DNA of 64,000 nucleotides from Bacteroidetes bacterium RIFCSPLOWO2_12_FULL_37_12 (GTDB lineage Bacteria; Bacteroidota; Bacteroidia; 2-12-FULL-37-12): NCBI GenBank assembly GCA_001769655.1, contig MEPC01000042.1, positions 164,277 to 228,276 of the forward strand, in the 5' to 3' direction. Each line of letters begins with the position of its first letter. Within the stretch, counting starts at the first letter, position 1. This document shows, piece by piece, positions 39,302 through 54,800 of the stretch. The notes beneath the pieces were generated by a model. That model was given only the letters and a program-made list of their open reading frames with translations, searched no databases and had not been told where the DNA came from. The translations under genes were made by a program, and so were the position numbers.

Positions 39302-40066
39302 ATGATGTTTGAATTCCTGAAAAAATTTTTAGGTGGTGGCGCTGAAGACATGGAGGATACAGAATTTTTTCCGGTGACTACAGACATGCACTCGCATTTG
39401 ATTCCCGGTATTGATGATGGAGCAAAAACAACAGAGGATAGCATCCGGCTTATTCAGGGACTTCAAACCTTGGGATATGCACGCTTAATTACTACCCCAC
39501 ACATAACCGGTGACCATTATAAAAATACTCCCGAAATAATTTTGACGGGTCTTAATGCACTCCAACAGGTGTTAGCAGAAAGAAAAATTGAAGTGTCATT
39601 GCATGCCGCCGCGGAGTATTTTTTAGACGAGTGGTTCTTGAAAAAACTCCAACAGGGAAAATTATTATCTTTCGGCAGTGAAAATTATGTGTTGGTAGAA
39701 ACCGGTTTTTTAAACAAACCGGCAAATTTCACGCAGATTATTTCTGAAATCAAATCAGCCGGATATAAGCCCATATTGGCACATCCGGAAAGATACTTAT
39801 ATTTGTATGATGATTTTAATCATTATTTCCGGTTGCGAGAGAGCGGAATATTATTTCAATTAAATTTATTATCGCTTACCGGTCATTATGGTCCTAAAGC
39901 AAAAAAAATTGCCGAAGAATTAATTGATGCCCGTCTTATTGACTTAGCCGGAACTGATTTACACTCAGAATCGCATTTGGATAAATTAATGATGCTTAAA
40001 AAATTACCCTATTACAGGAAGTTAATGCGTCTTCCTTTGCTAAATGATTCAATAGATATACAATAG
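39302..40066 (+). CDS. cpsB: CpsB/CapC PHP-family tyrosine phosphatase
   Basis: DMHSHLIPGIDDG, TTPH, LAHPERY, GTDLH. Confidence 0.93.
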   Translation: MMFEFLKKFLGGGAEDMEDTEFFPVTTDMHSHLIPGIDDGAKTTEDSIRLIQGLQTLGYARLITTPHITGDHYKNTPEIILTGLNALQQVLAERKIEVSLHAAAEYFLDEWFLKKLQQGKLLSFGSENYVLVETGFLNKPANFTQIISEIKSAGYKPILAHPERYLYLYDDFNHYFRLRESGILFQLNLLSLTGHYGPKAKKIAEELIDARLIDLAGTDLHSESHLDKLMMLKKLPYYRKLMRLPLLNDSIDIQ

Positions 40067-40176
40067 TAATACAATGGTAACTCAATAGTAATACGATAGT
40101 AATAAAATAGTAATACAATGGTAATTCAATGGTATTACAACCGTATTACAACTGTATTACTATTGAATTACCCTTG
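40050..40176. repeat. 11-bp array (caatagtaata-like) that switches orientation; a short 7-bp array follows at about 40178..40207
   Basis: About 7 forward units followed by units matching the reverse complement (tattactattg). Confidence 0.8.
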
Positions 40177-40219
40177 ATTGACCAATGACTAATGACCAAC
40201 GACCAATTTCCAACGCCCC

Positions 40220-40933
40220 ATGACCACACACATTCAACCCGGCTCCTGCAATTTTCCTGATACAGATTTTTCTTCTTATCTTACCGCTGAAGATATTCAG
40301 ATTCTCAACCGCCATAAAACCTGCTCTACTTATAAAAAAGGGCAAATCGTTTTTAATGAAGGAAACTCGCCATTTGGATTATATTTTCTTTCCCATGGCA
40401 GTATTAAATTATGGAGAGAAACAATTAAAGATAAAGAAGTAATTATACGCTTGATTAAATGCGGTGAAATATTTGGCTATCGTTCCCTTTTAAGCAATGA
40501 GCCCTATAAAGCGAGCGCCACTACCCTGGAAGATTCAATAGTTTGCTTTTATTATAAAGAGGATTTTGTAGAAGTAATGAACCGTAATTCAACGTTTACT
40601 AAGCAACTTCTTCACCTTGTTGCGAGTGATATGGGAGAAATGGAAGAAAGTATCGGAAGCATGGCACATAAATCCATACGCGAGCGCATCGCCGAAAAGT
40701 TAATTATGCTCAACAATGAATTCGGAATAAATCAAGAAGGGAAAATCATAATCAATGTTTTGTTATCACGAAAGGACATGGCAGATATAACCGGAACCAC
40801 TACGGAACAAATTTCCCTGTTTCTGTCAGAATTTAAAAAAGAAGGGGTTATTTTATTTACCGAAGATAAAAAAATTCAAATACTTAAATTAGAAAAGCTG
40901 ATTCAGATGAGTAAGTTTAATAATACAGATTGA
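40220..40933 (+). CDS. Crp/Fnr family transcriptional regulator
   Basis: YKKGQIVFNEG, GEIFGYRSL, HTH LSRKDMADITGTTTE. Confidence 0.93.
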   Translation: MTTHIQPGSCNFPDTDFSSYLTAEDIQILNRHKTCSTYKKGQIVFNEGNSPFGLYFLSHGSIKLWRETIKDKEVIIRLIKCGEIFGYRSLLSNEPYKASATTLEDSIVCFYYKEDFVEVMNRNSTFTKQLLHLVASDMGEMEESIGSMAHKSIRERIAEKLIMLNNEFGINQEGKIIINVLLSRKDMADITGTTTEQISLFLSEFKKEGVILFTEDKKIQILKLEKLIQMSKFNNTD

Positions 40934-40982
40934 TTTTTTTCTACTTTTTTTACAACTACCTGTGGATTATAACAAATTCAAC

Positions 40983-41091
40983 TGACATAAATCATGTTTT
41001 CTTTTATTAAAAAAAGAGCATTTTGTGATGAAAAAAGGTAGTCGTATATGATAACGGTTATAAACCTATCTCTTTTTCCCATCTAATTTTG
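40983..41091 (+). promoter_or_regulatory. Promoter of the porin-oxidoreductase operon: two Crp/Fnr-like boxes (TGAcataaaTCA 40983..40994; TGAtaacggTTA 41049..41060) and a -7 box TAATTTTG (41084..41091)
   Basis: TGA-N6-TCA-type cores upstream of a TAnnTTTG box, between a Crp/Fnr gene and the operon. Confidence 0.55.
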
Positions 41092-41132
41092 TCCGTGTAA
41101 ATAATATCATTTACTCAAAATAAAACTTAACG

Positions 41133-42362
41133 ATGAAAACCTTAAAAAATACTCTGAAAAAAGCGCTCTTTCTGGCAACGATAGCCGGATTGACAACTTT
41201 TTCTATTGCCTTTTCACAAGAAAAGCCAAAAGAAGAATTTAAACCATCCGGAAAAGTTTGGGGGCTAACCTTCGGTGATTTTTATTGGAAAATGGGTGGA
41301 GATACTCTTGCGGATAAGACACCATGGGGTGGTTCAGAATTTGGAAAAAAATATAAAGGACAATCCGGAATAACTTTCCGAAGGATTTATCTTGGCTATG
41401 ATTATCAACTCGCTCCAAATTTTAATGCAAAATTTCTTTTGGAAGGAGGAGACGGAGTTACTACCGGCGGCGGAGATAGAACGGTTTATATCAAAGCCGC
41501 TAACTTAGAATGGAAAAACATTATTAAGAGGCACTCATTATATATAGGTCAAGTGGGAACAACCAGTTTTTCAACCGCTGAGGGAACCTGGGGACTACGC
41601 GCTGTTGAAAAAGTAGTAGGCGATGCACGCGGATGGCTCCCTTCTAACGATTTAGGGTTCAGATGGTCCGGACAGTTGGACTCATCCGGAAACTTTGGTT
41701 ATCATTTATTATATGGTACAGGAAAAGGTTCCAAACCCGAAGACAACAACTTCAGGAAATATTTTATGGGCGTAGATGCAAAATTGATGGACAAAAAAAT
41801 AATTTTCGCTTTCAATTATGATTTTGAAACACAAGCCGCTTACGACAAAGATTATTTGCCATCAAAAACAGATTCATTACCGCAAAGCAAATCTACCATA
41901 GAAGCTTTCCTTGGTCTTCAATTAGAAAATTTTACAGTAGGATTTGAATTAGTTAATCAAACCCAAGTCAATAATAAAAGTCAAAAAGATACTGTAGTAA
42001 CAAAAGATACCTTATTAGATGTGAAACCGTTTGGCATATCCTTTTTTGTAAAGGCAAGTGTAATTAAAGACAAACTACTACTATTTGGCAGATACGATAT
42101 GGTAAATCAGGATACTGAATACAAAAGTGACAGAAAATACAAAGCACTTGCTTATAAACCCTATAACGAAACGTTTATGACCTTCGGTTTGGATTGGACA
42201 CCAAACAAGAATGTTCATATTATTCCCAATATCTGGATAAACAGTTATACAGATAACAGAAAGAAACCCGATGGATACGACAAAACGAAGGACTTTGGTA
42301 AATATTGGGAAAGAAGTGCTGATTTTGTTCCAAGATTGACTTTCTTTTATGTATTTAAATAA
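41133..42362 (+). CDS. Outer-membrane porin-like beta-barrel, possibly anion-selective
   Basis: Signal peptide, FRRIYLGYDY motif, amphipathic beta strands, C-terminal aromatic strand RLTFFYVFK. Confidence 0.7.
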   Translation: MKTLKNTLKKALFLATIAGLTTFSIAFSQEKPKEEFKPSGKVWGLTFGDFYWKMGGDTLADKTPWGGSEFGKKYKGQSGITFRRIYLGYDYQLAPNFNAKFLLEGGDGVTTGGGDRTVYIKAANLEWKNIIKRHSLYIGQVGTTSFSTAEGTWGLRAVEKVVGDARGWLPSNDLGFRWSGQLDSSGNFGYHLLYGTGKGSKPEDNNFRKYFMGVDAKLMDKKIIFAFNYDFETQAAYDKDYLPSKTDSLPQSKSTIEAFLGLQLENFTVGFELVNQTQVNNKSQKDTVVTKDTLLDVKPFGISFFVKASVIKDKLLLFGRYDMVNQDTEYKSDRKYKALAYKPYNETFMTFGLDWTPNKNVHIIPNIWINSYTDNRKKPDGYDKTKDFGKYWERSADFVPRLTFFYVFK

Positions 42363-42393
42363 TTGAAAATTGAGCATTTAACTACAATTAAAT

Positions 42394-43623
42394 ATGAAAT
42401 CATCAGAAACCACAACACCAAAAAAATTAGCGGCACAAACGCTAATAGAAGCTGGAAATCAACTTATGTTTTCCAATCACTTCACCGGTGCAATCAAAGA
42501 ATACAACAGAGCGATTGAAACAGACAACGCCAATGCCACAGCATATTATCAGCGTGGATGGGCAAAGTTACAAAATGGTGACAGGGAAGGAGGCATCTGT
42601 GATTGGAACACAGCTATTAAATTAAATCCGGATTATGCAGATGCTTACGCTGACAGAGCGGCTACCCGTGTAGCCGTCAATGATTTATCCGCGGCATTGT
42701 CTGATTATAAAACTGCATTGCAAATAGATCCTGCAAAAAAAAATACTCTTCTGCCAATCATCACTAAAATAGAGAATGAACTTAAAACAACTTCGAAAGA
42801 AAAAGAACCTGTGGATACATACCTTGAAAAAGAAACCGGGATGAATTCAGTGAGTCGTAGTGAATTTTTGAAAACGATTGGTGGAATGGCGCTTGTCACT
42901 TCTGCACTATCAATGTCCGGATGCAATAAGATAGAAGGATTTAACGGAAAAAAAGGAGCCGGCTGGGGATTCATTATTGATTTACAACGATGCGTTGCGT
43001 GCAAGGCATGCGTGATTGCCTGCAAAAATGAGAACAAAACACCTCCAGGCGTTGCATATAATATGTTTATTGAAGAAGAACATGGAGAATTTCCAAATAC
43101 ATTCTCCAATTATTTCACTCGTCCATGCATGCATTGTGAAAAAAGTTCCTGCTCAATGGTTTGCCCTGTTTCTGCTACCTATCATCGGGAAGATGGTATT
43201 GTAGTAGTGGATTACAATAAGTGTATCGGGTGCCGTTATTGCATTGCTTCATGTCCCTACGGTGCGCGTTCGTTTGATTACGGACATAATTATATTGCCG
43301 ATCCCAATAATCCTTACAATCTCATTCCATCAGGCGAATACAACGGTAAATTTGGTTTGAGAAAAGATGGAGGTTCTCCTATAGGAAATGTAAGAAAATG
43401 TATGTTGTGCCTGCACTTACAAGACGAAAAAGGAGAATACACGGAGCCACCCGCTTGCTCCAGAACCTGTATGGGCAAAGCCATTCATTTCGGCGATTTG
43501 AAAGATCCAAACGGAAAATGCCTCGTTCACGGTGAAAATTTACATGAGTTGATTGCAAGAAGAAATCATCATCGTTTAAAAGAAGAATTGGGTAACGAGC
43601 CAAATGTTTATTATTTGACATAA
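42394..43623 (+). CDS. 4Fe-4S electron-transfer subunit (NrfC/TtrB/SrdB type) with fused N-terminal TPRs and an internal Tat-like signal
   Basis: About 3 TPRs, then SRSEFLK plus an h-region, then CVACKACVIAC, CMHCEKSSCSMVCP, CIGCRYCIASCP, KCMLC...PACSRTC. Confidence 0.92.
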   Translation: MKSSETTTPKKLAAQTLIEAGNQLMFSNHFTGAIKEYNRAIETDNANATAYYQRGWAKLQNGDREGGICDWNTAIKLNPDYADAYADRAATRVAVNDLSAALSDYKTALQIDPAKKNTLLPIITKIENELKTTSKEKEPVDTYLEKETGMNSVSRSEFLKTIGGMALVTSALSMSGCNKIEGFNGKKGAGWGFIIDLQRCVACKACVIACKNENKTPPGVAYNMFIEEEHGEFPNTFSNYFTRPCMHCEKSSCSMVCPVSATYHREDGIVVVDYNKCIGCRYCIASCPYGARSFDYGHNYIADPNNPYNLIPSGEYNGKFGLRKDGGSPIGNVRKCMLCLHLQDEKGEYTEPPACSRTCMGKAIHFGDLKDPNGKCLVHGENLHELIARRNHHRLKEELGNEPNVYYLT

Positions 43624-43631
43624 TATAATTG

Positions 43632-43660
43632 GTATAGACGGGTTTAAAACCCGTCTATAC
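43632..43660. repeat. Perfect palindrome GTATAGACGGGTTT-A-AAACCCGTCTATAC (REP-like)
   Basis: 14-bp arms, between the FeS subunit and NrfD genes. Confidence 0.85.
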
Positions 43661-43694
43661 TATCATTAATCATTTGTTATAAAATCTAATCAAT

Positions 43695-44915
43695 ATGAAT
43701 GCAACATCAATACAAGACACCTCTGCAAACAAAGGTTTGCGGAACTTTGGATATGCAATCCTGACAATAATAACCCTTATCGGTTTATATGCCATTTTTG
43801 TAAGGTTTAAGGAAGGGCTTATGGTGACTAATATGACGCAAAATGTTCCCTGGGGGTTCTGGGTGGCATTCTATATTTATTTTATCGGTTTATCCGCCGG
43901 TTCATTTCTGCTTTCCACTTTAATTTATGTTTTCAAAATGGAACAATATGAAAAAGCCGGAAAATTGGCACTCATTCAGGCATTGTTATGTATGTTGATG
44001 GCAGTTTGGCTCATATTCATAGACCTTGGGCATCCGAGCAGGGCTTACAGAGTGCTTACCAACTGGCACAGTACTTCTGTTCTTGCTTGGGAAGCGATGT
44101 TTTATGGTCTGTATATAGTCGTAATTATTGCAGAACTCTATTATGTAATGCGGGCTGATTTTCACTTTATGAAAACCGGTTCACCATTATCCACTGATTT
44201 AGTAGCAGAAGGAAAAAAATGGTTGATGATTCTTGGAATCATCGGAATTCCTGTAGCTATTGGAGTACACGGAGGAACTGGAGCATTATTTGCAGTCGCA
44301 AAAGCAAGACCGGGCTGGTTTAGTGGTTTATTCCCCATTATCTTCTTAGTATCTGCTTTAGCTTCGGGTGGTGGCTTACTGGCTTTCATTACCTCTCTCA
44401 CTTCAAAATTGCCTCAACCGGAAAAATTAAAATTAGTAAAATCTCTTATGTCGCTGACTGTCGGTGTAATCGCATTTGACATGTTGCTATTTACTTCAGA
44501 AATTTTCATTACTTTCTATGGAGGAATTTCACATGAAGTTAAATCTTGGACGTTGACTATTTTTGGTCCAAACTGGCCGGTTTTCTGGTTTGTTCAGGTA
44601 GGTCTTGGTATGTTAGCACCCATCCTGATTGTCGCCAATAAAAATACTTCCTCCTCTATCAAATGGCTTGGGTTTGCAGGACTTTGCGTGGTGGTCGGTA
44701 TCATAGGAACCCGTCTTAACATTGTGATTCCGCCACAGATTACACCAACGTTTGATACATTGCCGGAAGCAAATCATCATTTCCGTTTTTCTTACGGATA
44801 TTTTCCAAGTATCAATGAATGGTTGGTAGCAATAGGAAGCATTTCATTAATAATCTGGGCATTCATTTATTCACTAAAAAAATTTCCCGTAAATACGCTA
44901 CACAACACAAAATAA
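43695..44915 (+). CDS. NrfD/PsrC-family membrane anchor (quinol-interacting; SrdC-like)
   Basis: PWGFWVAFYIYFIGLSAG, DLGHP, VHGGTG, P..FLVSA..SG; about 10 TM helices. Confidence 0.93.
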   Translation: MNATSIQDTSANKGLRNFGYAILTIITLIGLYAIFVRFKEGLMVTNMTQNVPWGFWVAFYIYFIGLSAGSFLLSTLIYVFKMEQYEKAGKLALIQALLCMLMAVWLIFIDLGHPSRAYRVLTNWHSTSVLAWEAMFYGLYIVVIIAELYYVMRADFHFMKTGSPLSTDLVAEGKKWLMILGIIGIPVAIGVHGGTGALFAVAKARPGWFSGLFPIIFLVSALASGGGLLAFITSLTSKLPQPEKLKLVKSLMSLTVGVIAFDMLLFTSEIFITFYGGISHEVKSWTLTIFGPNWPVFWFVQVGLGMLAPILIVANKNTSSSIKWLGFAGLCVVVGIIGTRLNIVIPPQITPTFDTLPEANHHFRFSYGYFPSINEWLVAIGSISLIIWAFIYSLKKFPVNTLHNTK

Positions 44916-44946
44916 ATTGCAACCAGAAAAAATTAATAAAAAAATT

Positions 44947-47496
44947 ATGAATACACCAACAACAGAATCGCGCAAAAGTTTCCTGGCAAAATCCGTTCTT
45001 GGCGCTGGCGGTTTGCTTGCCGGAATGACGTGGCTTTCAAAAGTCCACGGAGCCGAAGATTTTAATGCCGAAGTGGATAAACGTTTTAGCTTTAACTCAG
45101 GCGAATGGATTCCTTCGTGTTGTAATATGTGTGGTGGACAAACCGGCATATTATGTCAGGTTGTAGATGGTAAATTAATCCGCATTAAACCTAATTCACA
45201 TAATCCAATCGGCTTCAGTAACATCTCTGATGACTTTTTCAATAACTGCCCCGCAGAAGGCGCATCCATGTGTCCTAAAGGAAATGCAGGAATAATGACA
45301 CTTTATGACCCAGACCGTTTAGCTAAACCGGTAAAAAGAACCAACCCGAAAAAAGGACTCAACGAAGACCCCGGCTGGCAGGAAATTTCATGGGACGAAG
45401 CATATAAAACCATTGTTGCAAAAATGAAACAACTGAAGGATGCAGGGACGCCGGAAGCATTACTTTGGTTTTCAGAAGATCATAGTTTCACTCATATTCA
45501 AAAGGATTTTTGCGATTTATACGGAAGCCCTAATTACAGCAATCACTCCAACTTGTGCGATACAGCGCGAAAAGCATCTTTCAAAGCAGTAATGGGTGAT
45601 GAAAGACCGTTGATGGATTCTATTCAATCAAAATATATTTTACTTTTCGGATGGAATCCTTTGGGGGCAACCAAATGGTCGTGTTTGCCGAGAATCATTA
45701 CTCGTGCATTAGAAAATGGAGCGAAGTTAGTAGTGGTTGACCCGTATCTTTCTTATACTGCACGTAAAGCGAACGAATGGATTCCCATTCGTCCTTCCAC
45801 CGATGGGGCAATGGCTCTTGCCATGTGTCATGTCATTATCAGAGATAAACTTTATGATGAAAAATTCATTAACGAATGGACTTATGGCTTTGAGCAATTT
45901 TCAGAACATGTGAAAGATAAGACACCCGAATGGGCTGAAAAAATTACGACAGTGCCTGCGGCAACCATTGAAAGAATTGCTAAAGAATTTGCTAACGCTA
46001 AGCCCGCCGTTGTAGATGTGTGGTCTGGTCCAGGGCAACATTCCAATGCTGTGAATGGAGGCGCCGCTATTGCGGCTCTTGCCGCACTCACCGGTGGTAT
46101 TGATCGTAAAGGAACTTTGGTTTCTCCCAATAAAAAAGGGAATAGCCATCAGCATCTACATGTGGAAAAACCAAAAGCTCCAAGATATGCCGGTGACAAT
46201 AAAAAATATCCTATGTTTCATGGTTCAGGTTGTTATACCGAAATTTTTCAACAGCTTGCAGATAAGAAAGGTAATTATCCGGCTAAAATGGCTATGATAG
46301 TTTTTCAAAATCCTGTTATGGCGGTACCGGGAACTGAAACCGTTATCAAAGCGTTGAGTAATCTTGAATTTGTAGTAGTGAATGATATTTTTCTCTCTGA
46401 AACAGCATTGATGGCAGACATTGTGGTGCCTGGGGCAACGTATCTTGAGCGATATGACTGGACAGGCAATTGGGTAACCTGGCCCTCACTTAGTTTACGA
46501 CAGCCCGTTGTAAAACCGATTTTTGGTCAACCCACTGAGGCAGAATTTGTTGTTGAAATAGGAAGACGTCTTGGTTTGACTGACTCAGAGGGTCATGAAT
46601 TTTTCTGGAATAATCCAATCACCGGGGAACGTGAGGAAAATCTTACAAAATGGTATGAAGCATTTTTCTCTAAAGAAATAATTAACGGCGCTCCTAAAAT
46701 AACGTTGGAAGAATTTAAAAAATTACCGGGAGCGGTATGGACTACCGGAAAAACTGAATATGAAAAATACAAAAAAGAGATTGCTGAAGATGTGTTGAAA
46801 ACAACCGTAGTTGAAAAAGTAAAAATTAAAATGCTTAAAAACGGTGAAGAAAAAGAAGTGGAGATAGAACATATCTACGACAAACCAAAAGCCGATGGAG
46901 GAAAACGATTGGGAACATATTTTATGGTAGAAGATGAAAACAAGAACAATGATCCGAAGTTCAAACCAAAAGTAACAAAGAAAGCGGTAAAAGGGTTTAT
47001 GACTCCTACCGGAAAAGTGGAGTTAGTACTAAACTATCTGAAAGGAAAAACCGATGCAAATGGTAATCCCTGCAGTGAATTTCCCGATTACAAACAGCGT
47101 GACTGGTACCCGAACAATGAATTTCCTTTCTTTTTAATCAACTGGAAAGAGGCAACGCACACGCATACACGAACACAAAACAATCGCTGGTTACTGGAGT
47201 TGAAACCCGAGAATCCTTTACAAGTAAATACTAAAACCGGTGAAAAGCTGGGTTTATCAACCGGCGATATTGTTTGGGTAGAATCAAAATATGGAAAAAT
47301 GAAAGCGAAAGTTCAACTCACAGAAGCCATACATCCGGAAGTGGTCGGCTCGCAACATGGGTTTGGTCACTGGGCGATGGGGAAAGAAGCAAAGGGTAGA
47401 GGTTCTACAGATTCTAACTTACGCCCGTGTAAGTCAGATCCCATAGGAGGACAATCGTTACATAAGGAGTGTTGTGTGAAAATTTATAAAGTGTAA
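44947..47496 (+). CDS. Mo-bisPGD oxidoreductase catalytic subunit (DMSO reductase superfamily; Psr/Arr/Ttr-related lineage)
   Basis: Tat-like SRKSFL, CCNMCGGQT...CPKG, YDPDRL, HSNLC, VVVDP, SETALMADIVVPGATYLER, and a C-terminal molydop-binding domain (HGFGH). Confidence 0.93.
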   Translation: MNTPTTESRKSFLAKSVLGAGGLLAGMTWLSKVHGAEDFNAEVDKRFSFNSGEWIPSCCNMCGGQTGILCQVVDGKLIRIKPNSHNPIGFSNISDDFFNNCPAEGASMCPKGNAGIMTLYDPDRLAKPVKRTNPKKGLNEDPGWQEISWDEAYKTIVAKMKQLKDAGTPEALLWFSEDHSFTHIQKDFCDLYGSPNYSNHSNLCDTARKASFKAVMGDERPLMDSIQSKYILLFGWNPLGATKWSCLPRIITRALENGAKLVVVDPYLSYTARKANEWIPIRPSTDGAMALAMCHVIIRDKLYDEKFINEWTYGFEQFSEHVKDKTPEWAEKITTVPAATIERIAKEFANAKPAVVDVWSGPGQHSNAVNGGAAIAALAALTGGIDRKGTLVSPNKKGNSHQHLHVEKPKAPRYAGDNKKYPMFHGSGCYTEIFQQLADKKGNYPAKMAMIVFQNPVMAVPGTETVIKALSNLEFVVVNDIFLSETALMADIVVPGATYLERYDWTGNWVTWPSLSLRQPVVKPIFGQPTEAEFVVEIGRRLGLTDSEGHEFFWNNPITGEREENLTKWYEAFFSKEIINGAPKITLEEFKKLPGAVWTTGKTEYEKYKKEIAEDVLKTTVVEKVKIKMLKNGEEKEVEIEHIYDKPKADGGKRLGTYFMVEDENKNNDPKFKPKVTKKAVKGFMTPTGKVELVLNYLKGKTDANGNPCSEFPDYKQRDWYPNNEFPFFLINWKEATHTHTRTQNNRWLLELKPENPLQVNTKTGEKLGLSTGDIVWVESKYGKMKAKVQLTEAIHPEVVGSQHGFGHWAMGKEAKGRGSTDSNLRPCKSDPIGGQSLHKECCVKIYKV

Positions 47497-47556
47497 CTTA
47501 AATAAACATTAAAATTATGGTACTGGTTACTAGTAGCTGACGAAAATTACCTTGAA

Positions 47557-48318
47557 ATGAATAGTGAGTACCCATCTTGTATTTCCTGCCCTAATAGCAA
47601 TTGCTTTATCAATAAGTATTGTTCTCAACATTGGAGAACGTTGATTGATAAAAAAAAAGAAGTCGGACGATATCAGCGTAAGCAGGTCATCTTTCATGAA
47701 GATAATATCGTCCGGGGGGCATACTTTATTTTTACAGGTAAAGTAAAAATATACAATACCGGTAAAGGAGGAAAAGAGCAAATTGTTCGTCTGGTATCTT
47801 CCGGTGAATTGTTCGGGTTACGTTCAGATACTGAAACAAACTATCTCGTCAGTAGCATTGCCTTGGATGACTGTGTACTTTGTTTCATAGAAAAGTCACT
47901 TCTGGACAATATGCTTAAAGAAAATAACGACTTTGCAGTACAGTTGTTAAATTTTTATATCCGTGAAATGTCATTTTTAGAATTACGCCTGAAACATCTT
48001 GTTCAATTAAGTTCTGCTGAGAAAGTAGCCGAGGCGTTATTAATGATGAAAAAGAAATACGGGGTTCTGTCGCCTAAAGGAATTTTGCTTGATGTGAGGA
48101 TTTCAAGGCAGGATATTGCTGATATAGCCGGGACAACGGGTACAGAGGCAATTCGTGTGCTGGCAAAATTCAGACAAGAGAAAATCATTGAAGATAAAGG
48201 AGATAAAATTGTTCTACTTAAACATGAAAAATTACTGGAGCTTCTGCTGATGCATTGTTGTGAAAAAGACAATCAATATGTCAATCTATCAAAATGCTAT
48301 ACGCATGTGTTGGGGTGA
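47557..48318 (+). CDS. Crp/Fnr family regulator with Cys-rich termini
   Basis: N-terminal CISCPNSNC....C, HTH ISRQDIADIAGTT, C-terminal HCC...C. Confidence 0.9.
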   Translation: MNSEYPSCISCPNSNCFINKYCSQHWRTLIDKKKEVGRYQRKQVIFHEDNIVRGAYFIFTGKVKIYNTGKGGKEQIVRLVSSGELFGLRSDTETNYLVSSIALDDCVLCFIEKSLLDNMLKENNDFAVQLLNFYIREMSFLELRLKHLVQLSSAEKVAEALLMMKKKYGVLSPKGILLDVRISRQDIADIAGTTGTEAIRVLAKFRQEKIIEDKGDKIVLLKHEKLLELLLMHCCEKDNQYVNLSKCYTHVLG

Positions 48319-48339
48319 GAATTTATAAGGGGTAGATAG

Positions 48340-48597
48340 CTAATAATGATATTTACAGGAAATAACAATTATAGCATCATCGGTTACCCTGTAAACCAAA
48401 CGATGTACTTTGTCAATTCTCCGTGACCAGCATCCTTTATATTGATATTTAAGTGGCTCGGGTTTACCGGTACCATGAAATGGATCAATTATAATTTCAT
48501 CCATCAACTTGGAGATTTTCTCAAATATTTTTTTATCTTCTTTAGCCCACTCCCGATATTGGTCGTGTGCCGGATGATCCAAAATAATGCGCTTCAT
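48340..48597 (-). CDS. yoeB: Txe/YoeB family type II toxin
   Basis: PF.GTGKPEPLK...WSRRI...HRLVY...CKYHY. Confidence 0.95.
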   Translation of the reverse strand: MKRIILDHPAHDQYREWAKEDKKIFEKISKLMDEIIIDPFHGTGKPEPLKYQYKGCWSRRIDKVHRLVYRVTDDAIIVISCKYHY

Positions 48598-48881
48598 TTC
48601 GGAATTTTTACTTTTCTCAGTTTTGAAACATCCGGATTTTTCCCACGCATCAAATCTCTGCTGTATTTCCTAAACTCATCAATCGTAAATTCATACCCTT
48701 CTTCACTTTTTAACGAACTCTCAAGCATTTTCCGGTTTGCGGGACTTGCAAGAAGATATTCCGTTTCATCCATATCCTCCTCAACTATGATAGAAATAGG
48801 TTTGTTTTTAAAAATCGTTCTTAGCCCTTTCAGAAAACTATCGTCAAGTGCACTGGCTTTAGTATGAAATTCTGAGTACAT
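48594..48881 (-). CDS. Cognate antitoxin with a YefM-like C-terminal neutralising segment
   Basis: ETEYLLASPANRKML motif; 4-bp overlap with the toxin; -7 box at 48896..48903. Confidence 0.8.
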   Translation of the reverse strand: MYSEFHTKASALDDSFLKGLRTIFKNKPISIIVEEDMDETEYLLASPANRKMLESSLKSEEGYEFTIDEFRKYSRDLMRGKNPDVSKLRKVKIPK

Positions 48882-48976
48882 AAAATATTTTCTTACAAAG
48901 GTACAAAAAATTCAGTTACTGTCAATTTTGTTTACAAATACATTAAACTTGTAAGCGTTTTTAAAACCTCAAAATC

Positions 48977-49087
48977 GTGGACAATACAAAAATTAAAGAA
49001 ATTGTAAAGGAAAAGTACAGTGAAATTGCTAACCAAACGAAGGAACACAATCAATCTTCCTGCTGTGGTGCAGGAAGTTGCTCATAG
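48977..49087 (+). pseudogene. arsM: N-terminal fragment of arsenite methyltransferase ArsM (36 aa; not in the ORF track)
   Basis: GTG start; translates as MDNTKIKEIVKEKYSEIANQTKEHNQSSCCGAGSCS*, matching the recalled ArsM N-terminus (VKEKYSEIA...SSCCG). Lies 9 bp upstream of arsC. Confidence 0.75.
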
Positions 49088-49096
49088 AATAATGCG

Positions 49097-49531
49097 ATGA
49101 AAAATATTTTAATCCTCTGTACAGGAAATTCCTGCCGAAGTCAGATGGCGGAAGGATATTTTCGTTTCTTCGCAAAAAGTAAAGCAATCATTTACAGTGC
49201 GGGTATTGAAACTCACGGAGTAAATCCAAAAGCCATACAGGTTATGAAAGAAGATGGTATTGATATTTCTTCCCACACTTCCAACCATGTAAATGAATAC
49301 GCTCACATTGATTTTGATTATATCATAACTGTTTGCGATAATGCTAAAGAGAACTGTCCTTACTTTCCATCAAAAGCAAAAAAGTTTCATCAAAACTTTC
49401 CAGACCCTGCCAAAGTAAGAGGAAGCGAAGAAGAAATAGTACAGTCATTCAGAAAAGTAAGGGATATGATCAAAGAATATTCACAAAATTTTATTGAACA
49501 GAATTTAGAAGATATATCAAAAGCAATTTAA
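49097..49531 (+). CDS. arsC: Arsenate reductase ArsC (LMW-PTP fold, thioredoxin-coupled)
   Basis: CTGNSCRSQMAEG, TVCDNAKENCP, F.DP. Confidence 0.93.
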   Translation: MKNILILCTGNSCRSQMAEGYFRFFAKSKAIIYSAGIETHGVNPKAIQVMKEDGIDISSHTSNHVNEYAHIDFDYIITVCDNAKENCPYFPSKAKKFHQNFPDPAKVRGSEEEIVQSFRKVRDMIKEYSQNFIEQNLEDISKAI

Positions 49532-51873: not shown

Positions 51874-54800
51874 TCAGGGCTTAAAAATTTTCTGACTTCT
51901 ACTTATCTGTTTGTTTTTTATCCGTAATTCATAAATACCAGGTTTAAGTTCTGGGAAATCATCCATGGTTATTTTGTTGCTACCGGAAACAAGTGACACT
52001 TGATTTTTTTCATATATCTTTTGTCCCAGCACGTTCAGTAATTCCATATCTATTTTCCCCGGCTCTTTTACTTCGAGCATAATTACCGGTTTATCATTTA
52101 CCGGATTTGGAATAACTGAAATTTTTTGAATCATACCAGAATTTTCATTAATAGAAGTTGGAAAAACAGTTATAAAATCAGGGAATTTTCTGGATATTGA
52201 ACACCCTGACTGGCTGGTGGCATTAAGCGTAATGGTATAGGTTCCGGGTTTTTGATAGGTGTAAACAGGTTCAGTTTTCGAACTAAAAGCGCTATCCCCG
52301 AAATCCCATAAGTACGATTTAATTTGTCCGTTAGAAAAATTTCTGAATTGAATGGGTGTATTCACAGTTGTTTGCCTGGGTTCGGCATTTATATCAAGAA
52401 AAGGTGAAACCAACACCGTAATGTAATCTGATCGTGAATAGGAGGATTCGCCGGATTGCCCATACGCAATTAGTGACACTGAATATTTTCCAGGCGAATT
52501 GTAACTATGGACGGGGGAATGTTCCGTTGAGGATTTGCCGTTACCAAAATCCCAGAAGTATGTTCCTGCATATTCAGTGTAATTATTAAATTTTACTTCA
52601 AAAGGGGAACAGCCCAACGTTGCAGGAGTTGAGAATCGCACGATGGGTTTTGGTGGAATGACTTCAATAAAAAAGGATTTGATTTCTTTAGAAGAACATC
52701 CCAGCCAGTTATAAGCAACCAGTGTGACATCATATAATCCAAGATTGGAATACTTATGAGAGGGGTCTTTCAATGGACTTGAATAACCATCTCCAAAATC
52801 CCAGAGAAAGGAAACTCCTTCGGGTGTTTGATTTAAAAAACGAACAGTGTCACCCACAACCGGTTTCAGATTATCCACTGAAAAGTCAGTGGTTGGTCCC
52901 CCACTTACAACAATATATCCGGTTTTTGTTTCGGTATGCGACATGGAATCATTGGCTGAAATCAGAGTGACGGTATAATTACCAGGCAAATAATACGTAT
53001 GTTCCGGTTCAAAATCACCCGAACTGTTCTGGTCTCCGAAATCCCATACATACTTGTCAGAATTCAAACTGTTATTTAGAAATTTCACGTTAAATGGAGC
53101 ACACCCTATTACAGAATTAGTGTGAAAAATAGCAACCGGGTCAATGGGTGGCACCGGCACCACTTCAATTCGGTTCTGAAAAATTTTATTGACCACACAC
53201 CCGAATTCACTGTTTACAGTCAGTATGATAGTTTTAAATCCCAACTGATTATAGGTATGGGTAGGATGTAACATTGTACTTGTGTCACCATCTCCAAAAT
53301 TCCACTCATAAGATCTTCCATCAGTAGTTAGATTAGTAAAGGTTGCCGGCACACCTATAATTGGTTTCAATGGGCTGACATTAAAATTGATAGCTGGACG
53401 GGGATGTGCTATGATATAGGTTTTACGTATTTTATAAACGGTACCTGCTGAATTAGTGGCACCCAGTGTCACTGTGAAAACACCTCCCTGGTTATAAATA
53501 TGAACCGGATTCGTGTTTTCGCTTTTATTTCCATCTCCGAAATCCCATGAAAATTTATCTCCAAACTCCGTCAGGTTTGTAAAATGAATTTCAAGTGGAA
53601 TACAGCCCTCTGTAGTATCAGCTATGAATTCAGGTACCGGATAAGAACCAAAATCAAATTTGAAAATATCATTTAATTTTCCGGAACGCAAGGTAAACGA
53701 TGAATCATATCCCATTCCGAATCCTCCATAAAACCACAGCCCACCAGAGGTATCCACCCATCCAGCCATCTCAGTTCTACAAGATAAACTTGTAGATATT
53801 CGCATGCTATCTTTCACATTATATTTTCCACCTTCGTTGGCGTACAAATTTCCATTTATGAAAGACCATTGCTTTCGTTCAGGATCAAATTTCCACAAGT
53901 CGTTCAGGTAACCGGAATTATATTTACTGTATCCGTATCCACCGAAAAGCCAGATATTATTTCCTTTATCGGTAAGTGTCACTGCGTCTCTTCTTGCGCC
54001 TGGAGATAATGTTGAACTGAATTCACCGGAAGGACCAAAATTTCCAAATTCATTCACTAATTTTTCACCGCGTATCCATGTCCATTGACGAGTCAACGGA
54101 TTAAATTTCCAGAGGTCGTTGAGGTATCCGAAATTTATTTCAGAAAAACCATACCCGCCTAAAAGCCACAAATTATTATCAACATCAAACCAGGTAACAT
54201 GGTCGGCACGGGCACCCGGAATATTTCTGGCATCGGGAGTGTTCAATTGATTATAAATTCCGAATAGATTATTTATATTGATTCCGCTGAACCAAGTCCA
54301 CTTATTATTGTTGAGATTGTAATTCCAAAGATCATTCATAACGGTAGGTATCACTGTTGTCTCCATTCCATAACCACCGAAAGAAATTATCATAGTGTCA
54401 CCAACTATCCATCCTCCAGAATGGTATCTGCCACCGGGCTGATTGGCTGTAGTTGAAATTCCCAGCTTACCATAAGACCCCATTTGATTGGCTTGATTCG
54501 TACCTGCTACCCACATCCATTTGTTTGTAACTACATTGTAACTCCACAAATCATTTAAAAAGTTAGCACTGCTGTAAGGGCTTCCTCCAATGAGAAATAA
54601 ATTCCCGTTATCTGATGTAATTGCTGTTGCACCATAACGTGAACCGGGAGAATTAGTGAGAGACGCAACTCCTTTAGTGCCATAATTTGCTCCTGGATTT
54701 GTTTTTTCGGAACCCCCGATCCATTTCCAACCTTTTGCTAAAATATCATATTCCCAAAGGTCACCTAATCCGCCAGAATTATCTGCTGAAAAACCATAGC

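Follow-up and report, generated by a model that had tools for sequence, protein, structure and literature searches.

A porin-associated molybdoenzyme operon with a possible role in arsenic respiration in Bacteroidetes bacterium RIFCSPLOWO2_12_FULL_37_12

Closest described systems

The described systems closest to the operon analysed here belong to the cysteine-ligand Psr/Arr/Ttr supergroup of molybdoenzymes. They are PsrABC of Thermus thermophilus (2VPW), PhsABC of Salmonella and of the E. coli plasmid pSE11-3, ArrAB(C) of Shewanella ANA-3 (6CZ7), TtrBCA of Proteus and Salmonella and the selenate reductase SrdBCA of Bacillus selenatarsenatis. The operon was found in Bacteroidetes bacterium RIFCSPLOWO2_12_FULL_37_12, in a stretch of 64,000 nucleotides (assembly GCA_001769655.1, contig MEPC01000042.1, positions 164,277 to 228,276 of the forward strand), which is called the window below. 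It consists of six genes at positions 40220-48318 of the window, all on the + strand. They encode two Crp/Fnr regulators, a porin (X), a ferredoxin subunit (B), an NrfD-type membrane anchor (C) and a catalytic subunit (A) with a molybdenum bis(pyranopterin guanine dinucleotide) (Mo-bisPGD) centre. The best explanation of these six genes is that they form one anaerobic respiration module. The most likely product would be a menaquinol-dependent periplasmic reductase converting arsenate to arsenite; this reading, suggested by the sequences, is tentative and somewhat likelier to fail than to hold.

The core plan of Psr and Phs is the same, as it combines a Cys-ligated Mo-bisPGD subunit having an N-terminal iron-sulfur cluster with a four-cluster ferredoxin. 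However, their gene order is A-B-C, whereas that of the window is B-C-A. The family of the window has a CCxxC motif at the N-terminal cluster FS0 and Glu187 at the place of PsrA His145. Its B subunits carry a signal for twin-arginine translocation (Tat) and a lipobox of their own, unlike the Psr/Phs plan. PhsC is annotated as a cytochrome b and PsrC has eight helices, whereas subunit C, with 11 hydropathy peaks of which two overlap, has some ten hydrophobic helices.

ArrA is the second-best solved relative of subunit A, and its residues H189, C193 and K198 are common to both. However, ArrA-like proteins with the RGRY motif are phylogenetically apart from the family, and the gene order differs too. 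A system of the ArrXSR type (Chrysiogenes arsenatis ArrX, 6X6B) lies upstream of the operon in 15 of 80 relatives, but not in the window. TtrBCA shares with the window a Tat-type leader on B and the B-C-A order; the latter, which is also that of SrdBCA, had been proposed in an initial annotation of this DNA and agrees with the ttrB-ttrC-ttrA record of Proteus mirabilis. However, TtrA is longer than subunit A, as had also been noted (1032 against 849 aa), and subunit C matches Proteus TtrC with 24.6 bits in BLAST. The module of a ferredoxin and a ten-helix NrfD protein is common to DsrOP, HmcBC and HybAB; the family couples it to a Mo-bisPGD subunit and not to cytochromes or a hydrogenase. The Sb(III) oxidase NaoABC was considered and rejected as unrelated, being NapA-like with a Rieske subunit according to its paper.

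Arsenate reduction by complex iron-sulfur molybdoenzymes (CISM) other than Arr has been proposed for Pyrobaculum (cited in PMC5492636), Melioribacter roseus and Limisphaera (PMC13608581). According to PMC5492636 and PMC3534657, M. roseus has non-Arr CISM enzymes that arsenate induces; one of them, Mros1074-1076, is numbered in a B-C-A-like way and lies behind an ArrTSR-like system and arsRPCB. Its catalytic gene is last, and the preceding ArrT(X)SR-like system and ars operon resemble the context seen in relatives of the window. Limisphaera strain 4302-co respires arsenate without arrA (PMC13608581). The authors of these papers assign both enzymes to the Ttr branch, whereas the present family resembles PhsA much more than TtrA. 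No Melioribacter protein occurs among the 120 best matches (at least 67% identity) to a member of the family from Ignavibacteriaceae, and thus orthology with Mros1076 is unproven. Unnamed Cys-ligand lineages near the Psr, Arr and Ttr groups were noted by Wells and co-workers (PMC10100899). Beyond these papers, the open-access library searched yielded no account of the family, its signature or its link to ArrX-type sensors. New here is the recurrent arsenic-sensor and ars context of the operon in relatives.

Placement and signature of subunit A and its partner subunits

Subunit A scores 408.4 bits against the NCBIfam model of PhsA, 239.2 bits against that of ArrA and 105.2 bits against that of TtrA; the respective cut-offs of 694 (equivalog), 1600 and 1750 bits are not reached. 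In BLAST, the PhsA of the E. coli plasmid is 32% identical (245+75 bits) and Proteus TtrA 22-24% (74+71 bits). The best match in PDB is Thermus PsrA (2e-72, 248 bits), followed by Shewanella ArrA (5.8e-61, 210 bits). A profile of the A family gives 337 bits on PsrA and 295 bits on ArrA. For scale, PhsA matches Thermus PsrA with 343 bits in phmmer, ArrA being below reach at 1e-40. Relative to PsrA, subunit A has about 140 extra residues at approximately 556-694. A search of a protein atlas yielded generic molybdopterin clusters only. Three identities were ruled out: that of a PhsA equivalog, by 408 bits against the cut-off of 694; that of ArrA, by 239 bits and by the replacement of RGRY; and that of a TtrA/SrdA-like subunit, as regards TtrA, by 105 bits and 22-24% identity.

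A maximum likelihood tree of subunit A was built from 41 rows (LG+G4, quick search); branch support is given by the Shimodaira-Hasegawa-like approximate likelihood ratio test (SH-aLRT) only, which is weaker for long branches. The references were two enterobacterial PhsA, one TtrA, two ArrA-like proteins and the MopB paralogues of the same genome. ArrA-like genes were found in three of 401 genomes sampled in the class of a Dehalococcoidia-labelled metagenome-assembled genome (MAG), and two of them served as the ArrA-like references; none of 401 sampled genomes of Gammaproteobacteria contained a match to ArrA at E 1e-150 or better. The window falls into a clade of 21 rows with support 100, all of whose loci are ordered B-(C)-A. 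This clade and a sister clade of nine rows with A-B order are grouped with support 97, to the exclusion of the PhsA, TtrA and ArrA-like rows and of the other MopB paralogues of the genome. Within the clade, the window pairs with a locus from a Bacteroidia MAG (L001, support 100), and the pair joins loci of Myxococcales and Planctomycetota.

By this tree, and relative to the references compared, subunit A represents a lineage of its own, with good support, within the Cys-ligand Psr/Arr/Ttr supergroup. It is separate from these and not from all known enzymes, as SrdA, SrrA, SreA, AnrA, the Wolinella and Thermus PsrA, ArxA and the archaeal enzymes are outside the tree. The initial annotation had proposed a quinol-linked Mo-bisPGD enzyme that faces the periplasm and belongs to an uncharacterised lineage, which is supported. 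As for phylogeny, the separation from the ArrA-like, TtrA and PhsA references holds, while the deep order among Psr/Phs, Arr, Ttr and the new clade is left unsettled by the 41 rows.

The candidate active site was compared in 49 rows, comprising the window and 48 related loci. Two starts are available for subunit A, ATG at 44947 (849 aa) and TTG at 44917, 30 nt upstream (859 aa), and residue numbers follow the longer form. Glu187-Asp188 is present in all 49 rows and His189 in 46. His210, Cys214, Asp215, Arg218, Lys219 and Pro231 are likewise found in 49/49. The motif Cys68-Cys69-x2-Cys72 is seen in 48 rows, the exception being a mis-called start, and the usual third cysteine of FS0 is T or S in 36/49. 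The family signature is thus fixed as CCxxC, EDH and HxxxCDxxRK. None of the five PhsA, TtrA and ArrA-like references has E-D at 187-188 or C68; columns 186-189 read R-G-R-Y in both ArrA-like proteins, S-K-A/S-G in PhsA and A-G-D-D in TtrA.

The molybdenum ligand Cys214 aligns with PsrA Cys173 and ArrA Cys193, and in an alignment to the sequence of the ArrA structure H189, C193 and K198 are kept as H210, C214 and K219. The (R/K)GRY motif is the arsenate-binding active-site motif of ArrA (ANA-3 residues 163-166; PMC13685797). The corresponding columns of the window read S-E-D-H, and XGRGWG is missing, so the ArrA and ArxA signatures are indeed absent, as initially annotated. The FS0 motif of subunit A, C-C-x2-C...C at 45120-45160 (residues 68-81), is unusual, as the Cys doublet C68-C69-x2-C72 is seen only in the family. 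The Tat-like motif of the window is S-R-K-S-F-L (44947-45010), the clade consensus being RRxFLK; the R-K variant is common to the window, L001, L005, L007 and L014.

Subunit B starts with a tetratricopeptide repeat (TPR) domain (residues ~1-130), followed by an S-R-S-E-F-L-K motif, an h-region, a lipobox-like G-C and a four-cluster ferredoxin with all four Cys clusters present. Its NCBIfam scores are all below the cut-offs (DsrO 157, NrfC 134, ArrB 129, TtrB 128 bits). In BLAST it matches TtrB (31% identity, 126 bits) and PhsB (84 bits), and in PDB it matches PsrB (2vpw_B, 5.9e-34). Among the 120 best database matches, 33 show the same fusion of TPR and ferredoxin (44-70% identity, alignment A3), and thus it is not an assembly artefact. 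The fused proteins (within P0121-P0174) come from MAGs labelled Bacteroidota and Planctomycetota. The gene call of the source for this contig (P0123, 236 aa) misses the fusion.

Behind the TPR domain, the fusions have a Tat-type motif, then an h-region and a G-C that hardly varies. Most of them carry RR in the motif, the window (42840-42870), L001, P0121 and P0122 a single R. B subunits of the family that lack the fusion begin with the same Tat motif and G-C. Subunit B would thus be a Tat-exported lipoprotein, and the TPR domain, standing ahead of the signal, would stay in the cytoplasm. It may be a cytoplasmic pro-domain or a built-in export-proofreading chaperone in front of the Tat-lipoprotein signal. 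The motifs of B quoted in the initial annotation are features of the whole clade.

The NCBIfam scores of subunit C are below the cut-offs as well (DsrP 104, HmcC 98, HybB 97, TtrC 45 bits). Loci L001, L002, L003, L004 and L066 are the nearest ones for both A and B, and four of them for C, as L001 has no C. The B-C-A synteny is kept across the clade. Having their nearest loci in common, the subunits have travelled together, and the operon, for which a mosaic origin had been suggested, is not a recent mosaic.

Gene neighbourhoods in relatives

A scan of candidate stretches from 185,579 species genomes produced 432 relatives. Neighbouring genes were counted by tblastn at 50% or more coverage in the best 80 of these loci. 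The best 80 are 34-77% identical to the window, and many are from groundwater. With the exception of L031, a record without the MAG label in its title, they are MAGs throughout. Their labels cover more than 20 phyla, represented by relatives of 52-77% identity, and thus the system is not a speciality of Bacteroidota. With the Ignavibacteriaceae protein as the query, more than 900 proteins match at E 1e-100 or better. The only annotations of the family are 'thiosulfate/polysulfide reductase' and 'molybdopterin oxidoreductase'. The DNA of the window is present in sequencing runs labelled as groundwater, soil and sediment metagenomes; the 20 runs listed include none of RNA, which has no bearing on expression. 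By clade, the 80 loci divide into 71 core and nine sister loci.

A PhnD-family binding protein, a histidine kinase and a response regulator precede the operon in 15/80 loci; the nearest locus, L001 (77% identity), is among them. The binding protein is present in 10 of the 71 core and five of the nine sister loci, and in 9/41 of the core loci with at least 5 kb upstream. Response regulators of the LuxR type were counted in 14/80 loci and sigma-54 response regulators in 9/80; a sensor kinase cluster with an sCache domain was seen in 23 loci. A profile of 11 binding proteins gives 290 bits with ArrX (6x6b), 211 bits with AioX, 122 bits with PtxB and 92 bits with PhnD. The score with the periplasmic sensor domain of Proteus TtrS is 25 bits and the pocket residues are absent from it, and a TtrS-type reading was rejected.

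The pocket of AioX is formed by Y88, C106, Y131, S161, S163, H192 and D210 (PMC5908839). In the binding proteins, the equivalents Y90, C108, Y135, S165, H196 and D214 are invariant (11/11), and S167 is the majority residue. The invariant pocket includes the subfamily-specific cysteine, which is missing from PhnD, and the spacing is near-identical to that of AioX. Judged by these similarities, the binding proteins are arsenic-oxyanion sensors of the ArrX/AioX type.

In all five genomes tested for it, the binding protein is the only strong match (at least 360 bits) and is situated at the operon. ArrA over the cut-off was found in none of eight genomes tested, and AioA in none of five. In each of the eight genomes the best match to the ArrA model, at 132-152 bits, is an open reading frame (ORF) of about 800-900 aa, and in the three genomes with sensor coordinates it lies 6-8 kb from the sensor gene. 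This ORF is apparently the A subunit of the family. In many lineages the family is the only plausible target of an ArrX-type arsenic sensor.

Genes of arsenic resistance recur near the operon, as the initial annotation had implied. ArsC was found in 9/80 loci, Acr3-like proteins in seven, ArsR-like in five and ArsP in four, and some ars-like gene lies within 10 kb in 14 (11/71 core, 3/9 sister). Five genomes with arsC near the operon have one or two arsC-like genes per genome of 2.4-9.8 Mb, so that chance co-location within 10 kb would be expected in about 1% of loci. The observed 9/80 exceeds this; the loci are not phylogenetically independent, with labels from at least five phyla.

Other recurrent neighbours are NarJ-like chaperones (13/80), MoaA (15/80), MoeA (9/80), MobA (9/80) and CMD (AhpD-like) proteins (10/80). 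Genes of TauE/SafE permeases (7/80) sit 3' of the operon among moaA, moaC/B, MOSC, moeA and mobA in L001, L011, L026, L055 and others. They may serve sulfite export or the supply of an anion for cofactor synthesis.

Porin genes form another recurrent group. Homologues of X are upstream of B in 13-16 of the 80 loci (16 if X-family and BBP2 porins are counted together), OprO/P porins are found in nine loci and a third porin-like family in five. Porin X itself has no Pfam or NCBIfam match. Its AlphaFold (AF2) model is a beta-barrel, with a predicted local distance difference test (pLDDT) value of 78.6 and a predicted template modelling score (pTM) of 0.76. The best fold match in PDB is the phosphate porin OprP (2o4v, E 9.9e-13, TM 0.57); the anion-selective Omp32, general porins and OprO follow, and general porins score nearly the same as OprP. 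Among 13 members of the X family, three match Porin_O_P weakly (best E 0.00097) and one matches BBP2; the members end with the usual outer-membrane aromatic signature. According to the model X is a porin, and it is likely anion-selective. The porin dedicated to the operon in the initial annotation is thus supported. A paralogue of X with 44% identity is encoded elsewhere in the genome (G000:C42:293136-294308, - strand; locus L091, 7134-8309), directly 5' of the genes for a SulP sulfate permease (Sulfate_transp and STAS domains) and a PPK2 polyphosphate kinase.

An adjacent NrfD gene is missing from 14 of the 71 core loci, two of which are truncated contigs, and ten of the 14 have a porin gene. 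The arrangements porin-B-A or B-A without adjacent NrfD were seen in L001, L006, L009, L010, L012, L013, L026, L027, L031, L035, L046 and L049. With B a probable Tat lipoprotein, these members may take electrons from another donor. Shewanella ArrAB, which we take to lack a membrane anchor and to use another electron donor, is presumably a similar case.

The locus in the window and its possible function

All six reading frames of the operon are intact (Table 1), and its genes are separated by 31 nt (X-B), 71 nt (B-C), 1-31 nt (C-A) and 60 nt (A-regulator 2). Every element of the initially annotated gene list is present at 40220-49531. The YoeB/YefM-like pair adjoins the operon and is probably not a functional part of the system; it has no counterpart in any of the 80 related loci. 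The flanks are unrelated to the operon: upstream are genes of capsule export, downstream those of a TonB-dependent receptor and of a Kelch/PKD protein of the type IX secretion system (T9SS). The latter (51874-57621, - strand) has 1915 aa and comprises numerous Kelch repeats, six PKD domains and, at its C-terminus, a T9SS sorting domain. Just 5' of the first Crp/Fnr gene, at 40040-40171, there are about a dozen 11-bp units (AATAGTAATAC-like). The AATAGTAATAC-like array flips to an inverted form (GTATTAC) near 40130, its halves being 70-76% complementary. A second, short repeat of 14 bp (CCAAYGAC-like) lies at 40182-40226.

Table 1. Genes of the operon and of its 3' neighbourhood (window positions)
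Feature	Position	Strand	Evidence
Crp/Fnr regulator 1, 237 aa	40220-40933	+	Pfam cNMP_binding 7.5e-21, HTH_Crp_2 4.5e-13
Porin X, 409 aa, signal peptide	41133-42362	+	beta-barrel model; no Pfam/NCBIfam match
Subunit B, TPR + four-[4Fe-4S] ferredoxin, 409 aa	42394-43623	+	TPR_11 2.1e-15, Fer4_11 3.5e-14
Subunit C, NrfD-type membrane anchor, 406 aa	43695-44915	+	Pfam NrfD 1e-46
Subunit A, Mo-bisPGD, 849 aa	44947-47496	+	Molybdopterin 5.1e-41, Molydop_binding 1.4e-18, Molybdop_Fe4S4 2.4e-05
Crp/Fnr regulator 2, 9 Cys	47557-48318	+	cNMP_binding 3.1e-17, HTH_Crp_2 3.5e-13
YoeB toxin	48340-48597	-	YoeB_toxin 3.1e-32
Putative YefM-like antitoxin	48594-48881	-	weak match, E 0.0081
arsM remnant, 36-codon ORF	48977-49087	+	NF008823, profile positions 3-35 of 272, E 3e-6
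Thioredoxin-coupled ArsC (LMW-PTPase type), 144 aa	49097-49531	+	LMWPc 4.7e-23; TIGR02691 159.3 bits

The best NCBIfam matches of regulator 1 are FnrL, Fnr and FixK, all far below the cut-offs. Regulator 2 has cysteines at positions 8, 11, 16, 22, 106, 109, 234, 235 and 247. They include an N-terminal cluster C8-x2-C11-x4-C16-x5-C22 and the pair C106/C109, whose spacing we take to be like that of E. coli FNR; the score with the Fnr model is 57 bits (cut-off 228). In the Bacteroidia locus L001, a homologue of regulator 2 (41% identity) likewise follows A; L001 carries both this counterpart and the ArrX-type three-component system. By these similarities, the operon in the window appears to be under Fnr-type control. 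A search for the Fnr/Crp box TTGAT-N4-ATCAA was dropped as uninformative, as it produced 93 matches against 86 expected and none with one mismatch or less in the promoter gaps.

The score of ArsC with TIGR02691 is just below the cut-off of 174.3 bits. It has cysteines at positions 8, 13, 80 and 87, and Cys8, Cys80 and Cys87 presumably have the spacing of the pI258 triad. The genome, of 3.94 Mb and 97.9% complete, carries MoaA, MoeA, MobA, MoaC/B and TatC. The cofactor and export genes whose presence the initial annotation had wanted confirmed are thus there, and by gene content the genome can build and export the enzyme. No ArsP was found in it, and no ArsR with the one seed tried. With arsM reduced to a stump and Acr3 and ArsB missing, arsC and arsM look like the remains of an arsenic island and not like a working detoxification set. 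The arsenic linkage proposed initially thus stands at the level of the family (ars genes in 14/80 loci, ArrX-type sensors in 15/80), while the local link is thin.

At least six MopB paralogues besides subunit A are encoded in the genome. Two of them (989 and 998 aa), which lack the Mo-ligand Cys, are placed beside the ArrA-like rows of the tree, a position that we assume to be that of ActB of alternative complex III. A cluster of the type II dimethyl sulfoxide reductase family is situated at G000:C42:~274400-282800 (locus L090, 2387-10794). It encodes an EB_dh/cytochrome c protein, a molybdopterin subunit of 1179 aa, a NarH-like ferredoxin, a protein with a CarboxypepD_reg domain and a NarJ-like chaperone.

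For the substrate, the direction of electron flow, the type of quinone, the control by oxygen and the function of the porin, we infer the following. Porin X would admit an oxyanion into the periplasm. Entry of a phosphate-type anion is suggested by the OprO/P and X-family porins of relatives and by OprP as the best fold match. The ten-helix protein C would oxidise menaquinol, and by way of the four [4Fe-4S] clusters in B the electrons would reach the Tat-exported, Cys-ligated Mo-bisPGD subunit A, which would reduce the substrate. The operon would be switched on by its two regulators of the Crp/Fnr type, of which the second has an Fnr-like Cys cluster, probably when oxygen is lacking. Most host phyla presumably use menaquinone, whose potential is too low to accept electrons from arsenite. 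The reductive direction is suggested by this prevalence of menaquinone, by sensors nearer to the arsenate-binding ArrX, by the phosphate-type porins and by the Fnr-like control.

A number of observations weigh against arsenate reduction. The closest characterised sequence relative of subunit A is the thiosulfate reductase PhsA, with Thermus PsrA next, and the TauE/SafE genes resemble sulfite exporters and would fit thiosulfate. In place of the RGRY motif of ArrA stands S-E-D-H, two of whose residues are acidic, and in place of its Tyr210 stands Pro231; thus an ArrA-like mode of binding is excluded. According to PMC5908839, the ArrX-type pocket does not separate arsenate from arsenite. Most core loci have neither an ArrX-like nor an ars gene, one or the other being present in 17/71 of them (and in 6/9 of the sister loci), though short contigs are frequent. 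No named cultured organism occurs among the 240 matches listed from two protein searches, all names being generic. In the window, A and B have degenerate Tat motifs (R-K and R-S, respectively) in place of the RR of the clade. arsC is cut off from the operon by the toxin-antitoxin pair, and arsM is only a stump. Acr3 and ArsB matches are absent from the 97.9% complete genome, and an ArrX-like sensor is absent from both window and genome (tblastn at 1e-4 with seeds from related loci).

One alternative is that the enzyme is a divergent sulfur-compound reductase of the Psr/Phs type, acting on polysulfide, thiosulfate or tetrathionate, and that the arsenic context reflects co-regulation or co-location in arsenic islands. 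The ranking of PhsA (408 bits, 32% identity) and PsrA (2e-72; 337 bits with the profile) as the best characterised matches, the source annotation of relatives as 'thiosulfate/polysulfide reductase chain A' and the seven loci with TauE/SafE-like genes point in this direction. However, the PhsA score is well below 694, the clade is split from PhsA with support 97, and PsrA His145 aligns with Glu187. Moreover, no sulfurtransferase or other sulfur gene is found among the recurrent neighbour clusters, and the sensors are of the ArrX/AioX and not the TtrS type (25 bits). We regard this alternative as unlikely, though deserving attention. As the initial annotation suggested, the substrate could instead be another metalloid or chalcogen oxyanion, such as antimonate, selenite, selenate or tellurite, the sensors and ars genes serving antimony or a related element. 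Ars systems handle Sb(III) too, and the binding proteins weakly match a putative selenate-binding model (72-95 bits, cut-off 250). According to PMC7331816, PMC10100899 and PMC12183865, the supergroup includes SrrA (selenite), SrdA (selenate) and AnrA/ArrA (antimonate). As the only solved relatives of the sensors bind arsenic oxyanions, we consider such a substrate decidedly unlikely.

The reaction could also run in reverse, the enzyme being an arsenite (or antimonite):quinone oxidoreductase and a functional analogue of Arx and Aio. Many host labels (Nitrospira, Methylomirabilota, Acidimicrobiia, Gemmatimonadota, Tepidiforma) are those of aerobic or nitrate-respiring bacteria, and the acidic E-D pair would suit neutral As(OH)3. 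Two members of the sensor subfamily, AioX and ArxX, bind arsenite, the pocket being non-discriminating (PMC5908839), and sigma-54 response regulators, as in AioR, occur in 9/80 loci. However, the sensor profile matches ArrX better than AioX (290 against 211 bits), ArxA's GRGWG motif is missing, and the regulators of the window are Fnr-like. Given also the low potential of menaquinone, arsenite oxidation seems quite improbable. Finally, the locus could be a decaying acquired island, from which an exported active enzyme is no longer made in this genome. This would agree with the degenerate Tat motifs, the adjoining toxin-antitoxin pair, the truncated arsM and the lack of a gene for a NarJ/TorD-type chaperone in the operon, present in 13/80 related loci. 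However, none of the six reading frames is broken, and every family-invariant residue is present. The R-K and single-R motifs are shared with L001, the relative from Bacteroidia, and with further intact homologues, suggesting a tolerated lineage variant, and decay is very improbable.

Returning to arsenate reduction as the preferred function, a broader reading covers the whole CCxxC/EDH family, that is, the B-C-A clade and its A-B sister. Carried by uncultured bacteria, it may represent a third, so far unrecognised type of arsenic-respiring molybdoenzyme that reduces arsenate or, in certain hosts, oxidises arsenite, and that has a phosphate-type porin of its own and, in many lineages, an ArrX-type sensor. 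We consider this possible but doubtful. Such a type would be mechanistically unlike ArrA, since the acidic E-D pair replaces RGRY. Arsenic release into groundwater is usually traced by arrA, aioA and arxA, whereas the family is abundant in groundwater, soil and sediment metagenomes. Surveys based on arrA are blind to it, and it could thus, if this reading is true, account for the mobilisation of arsenic in aquifers poor in arrA. Estimates of the potential for arsenic cycling, and for 'thiosulfate reduction', in aquifers that are based on genes would then need revising, and the active site would be a new solution for arsenic redox chemistry. Whatever the substrate, the family signature, the dedicated porin and the recurrent TPR-ferredoxin fusion remain testable features.

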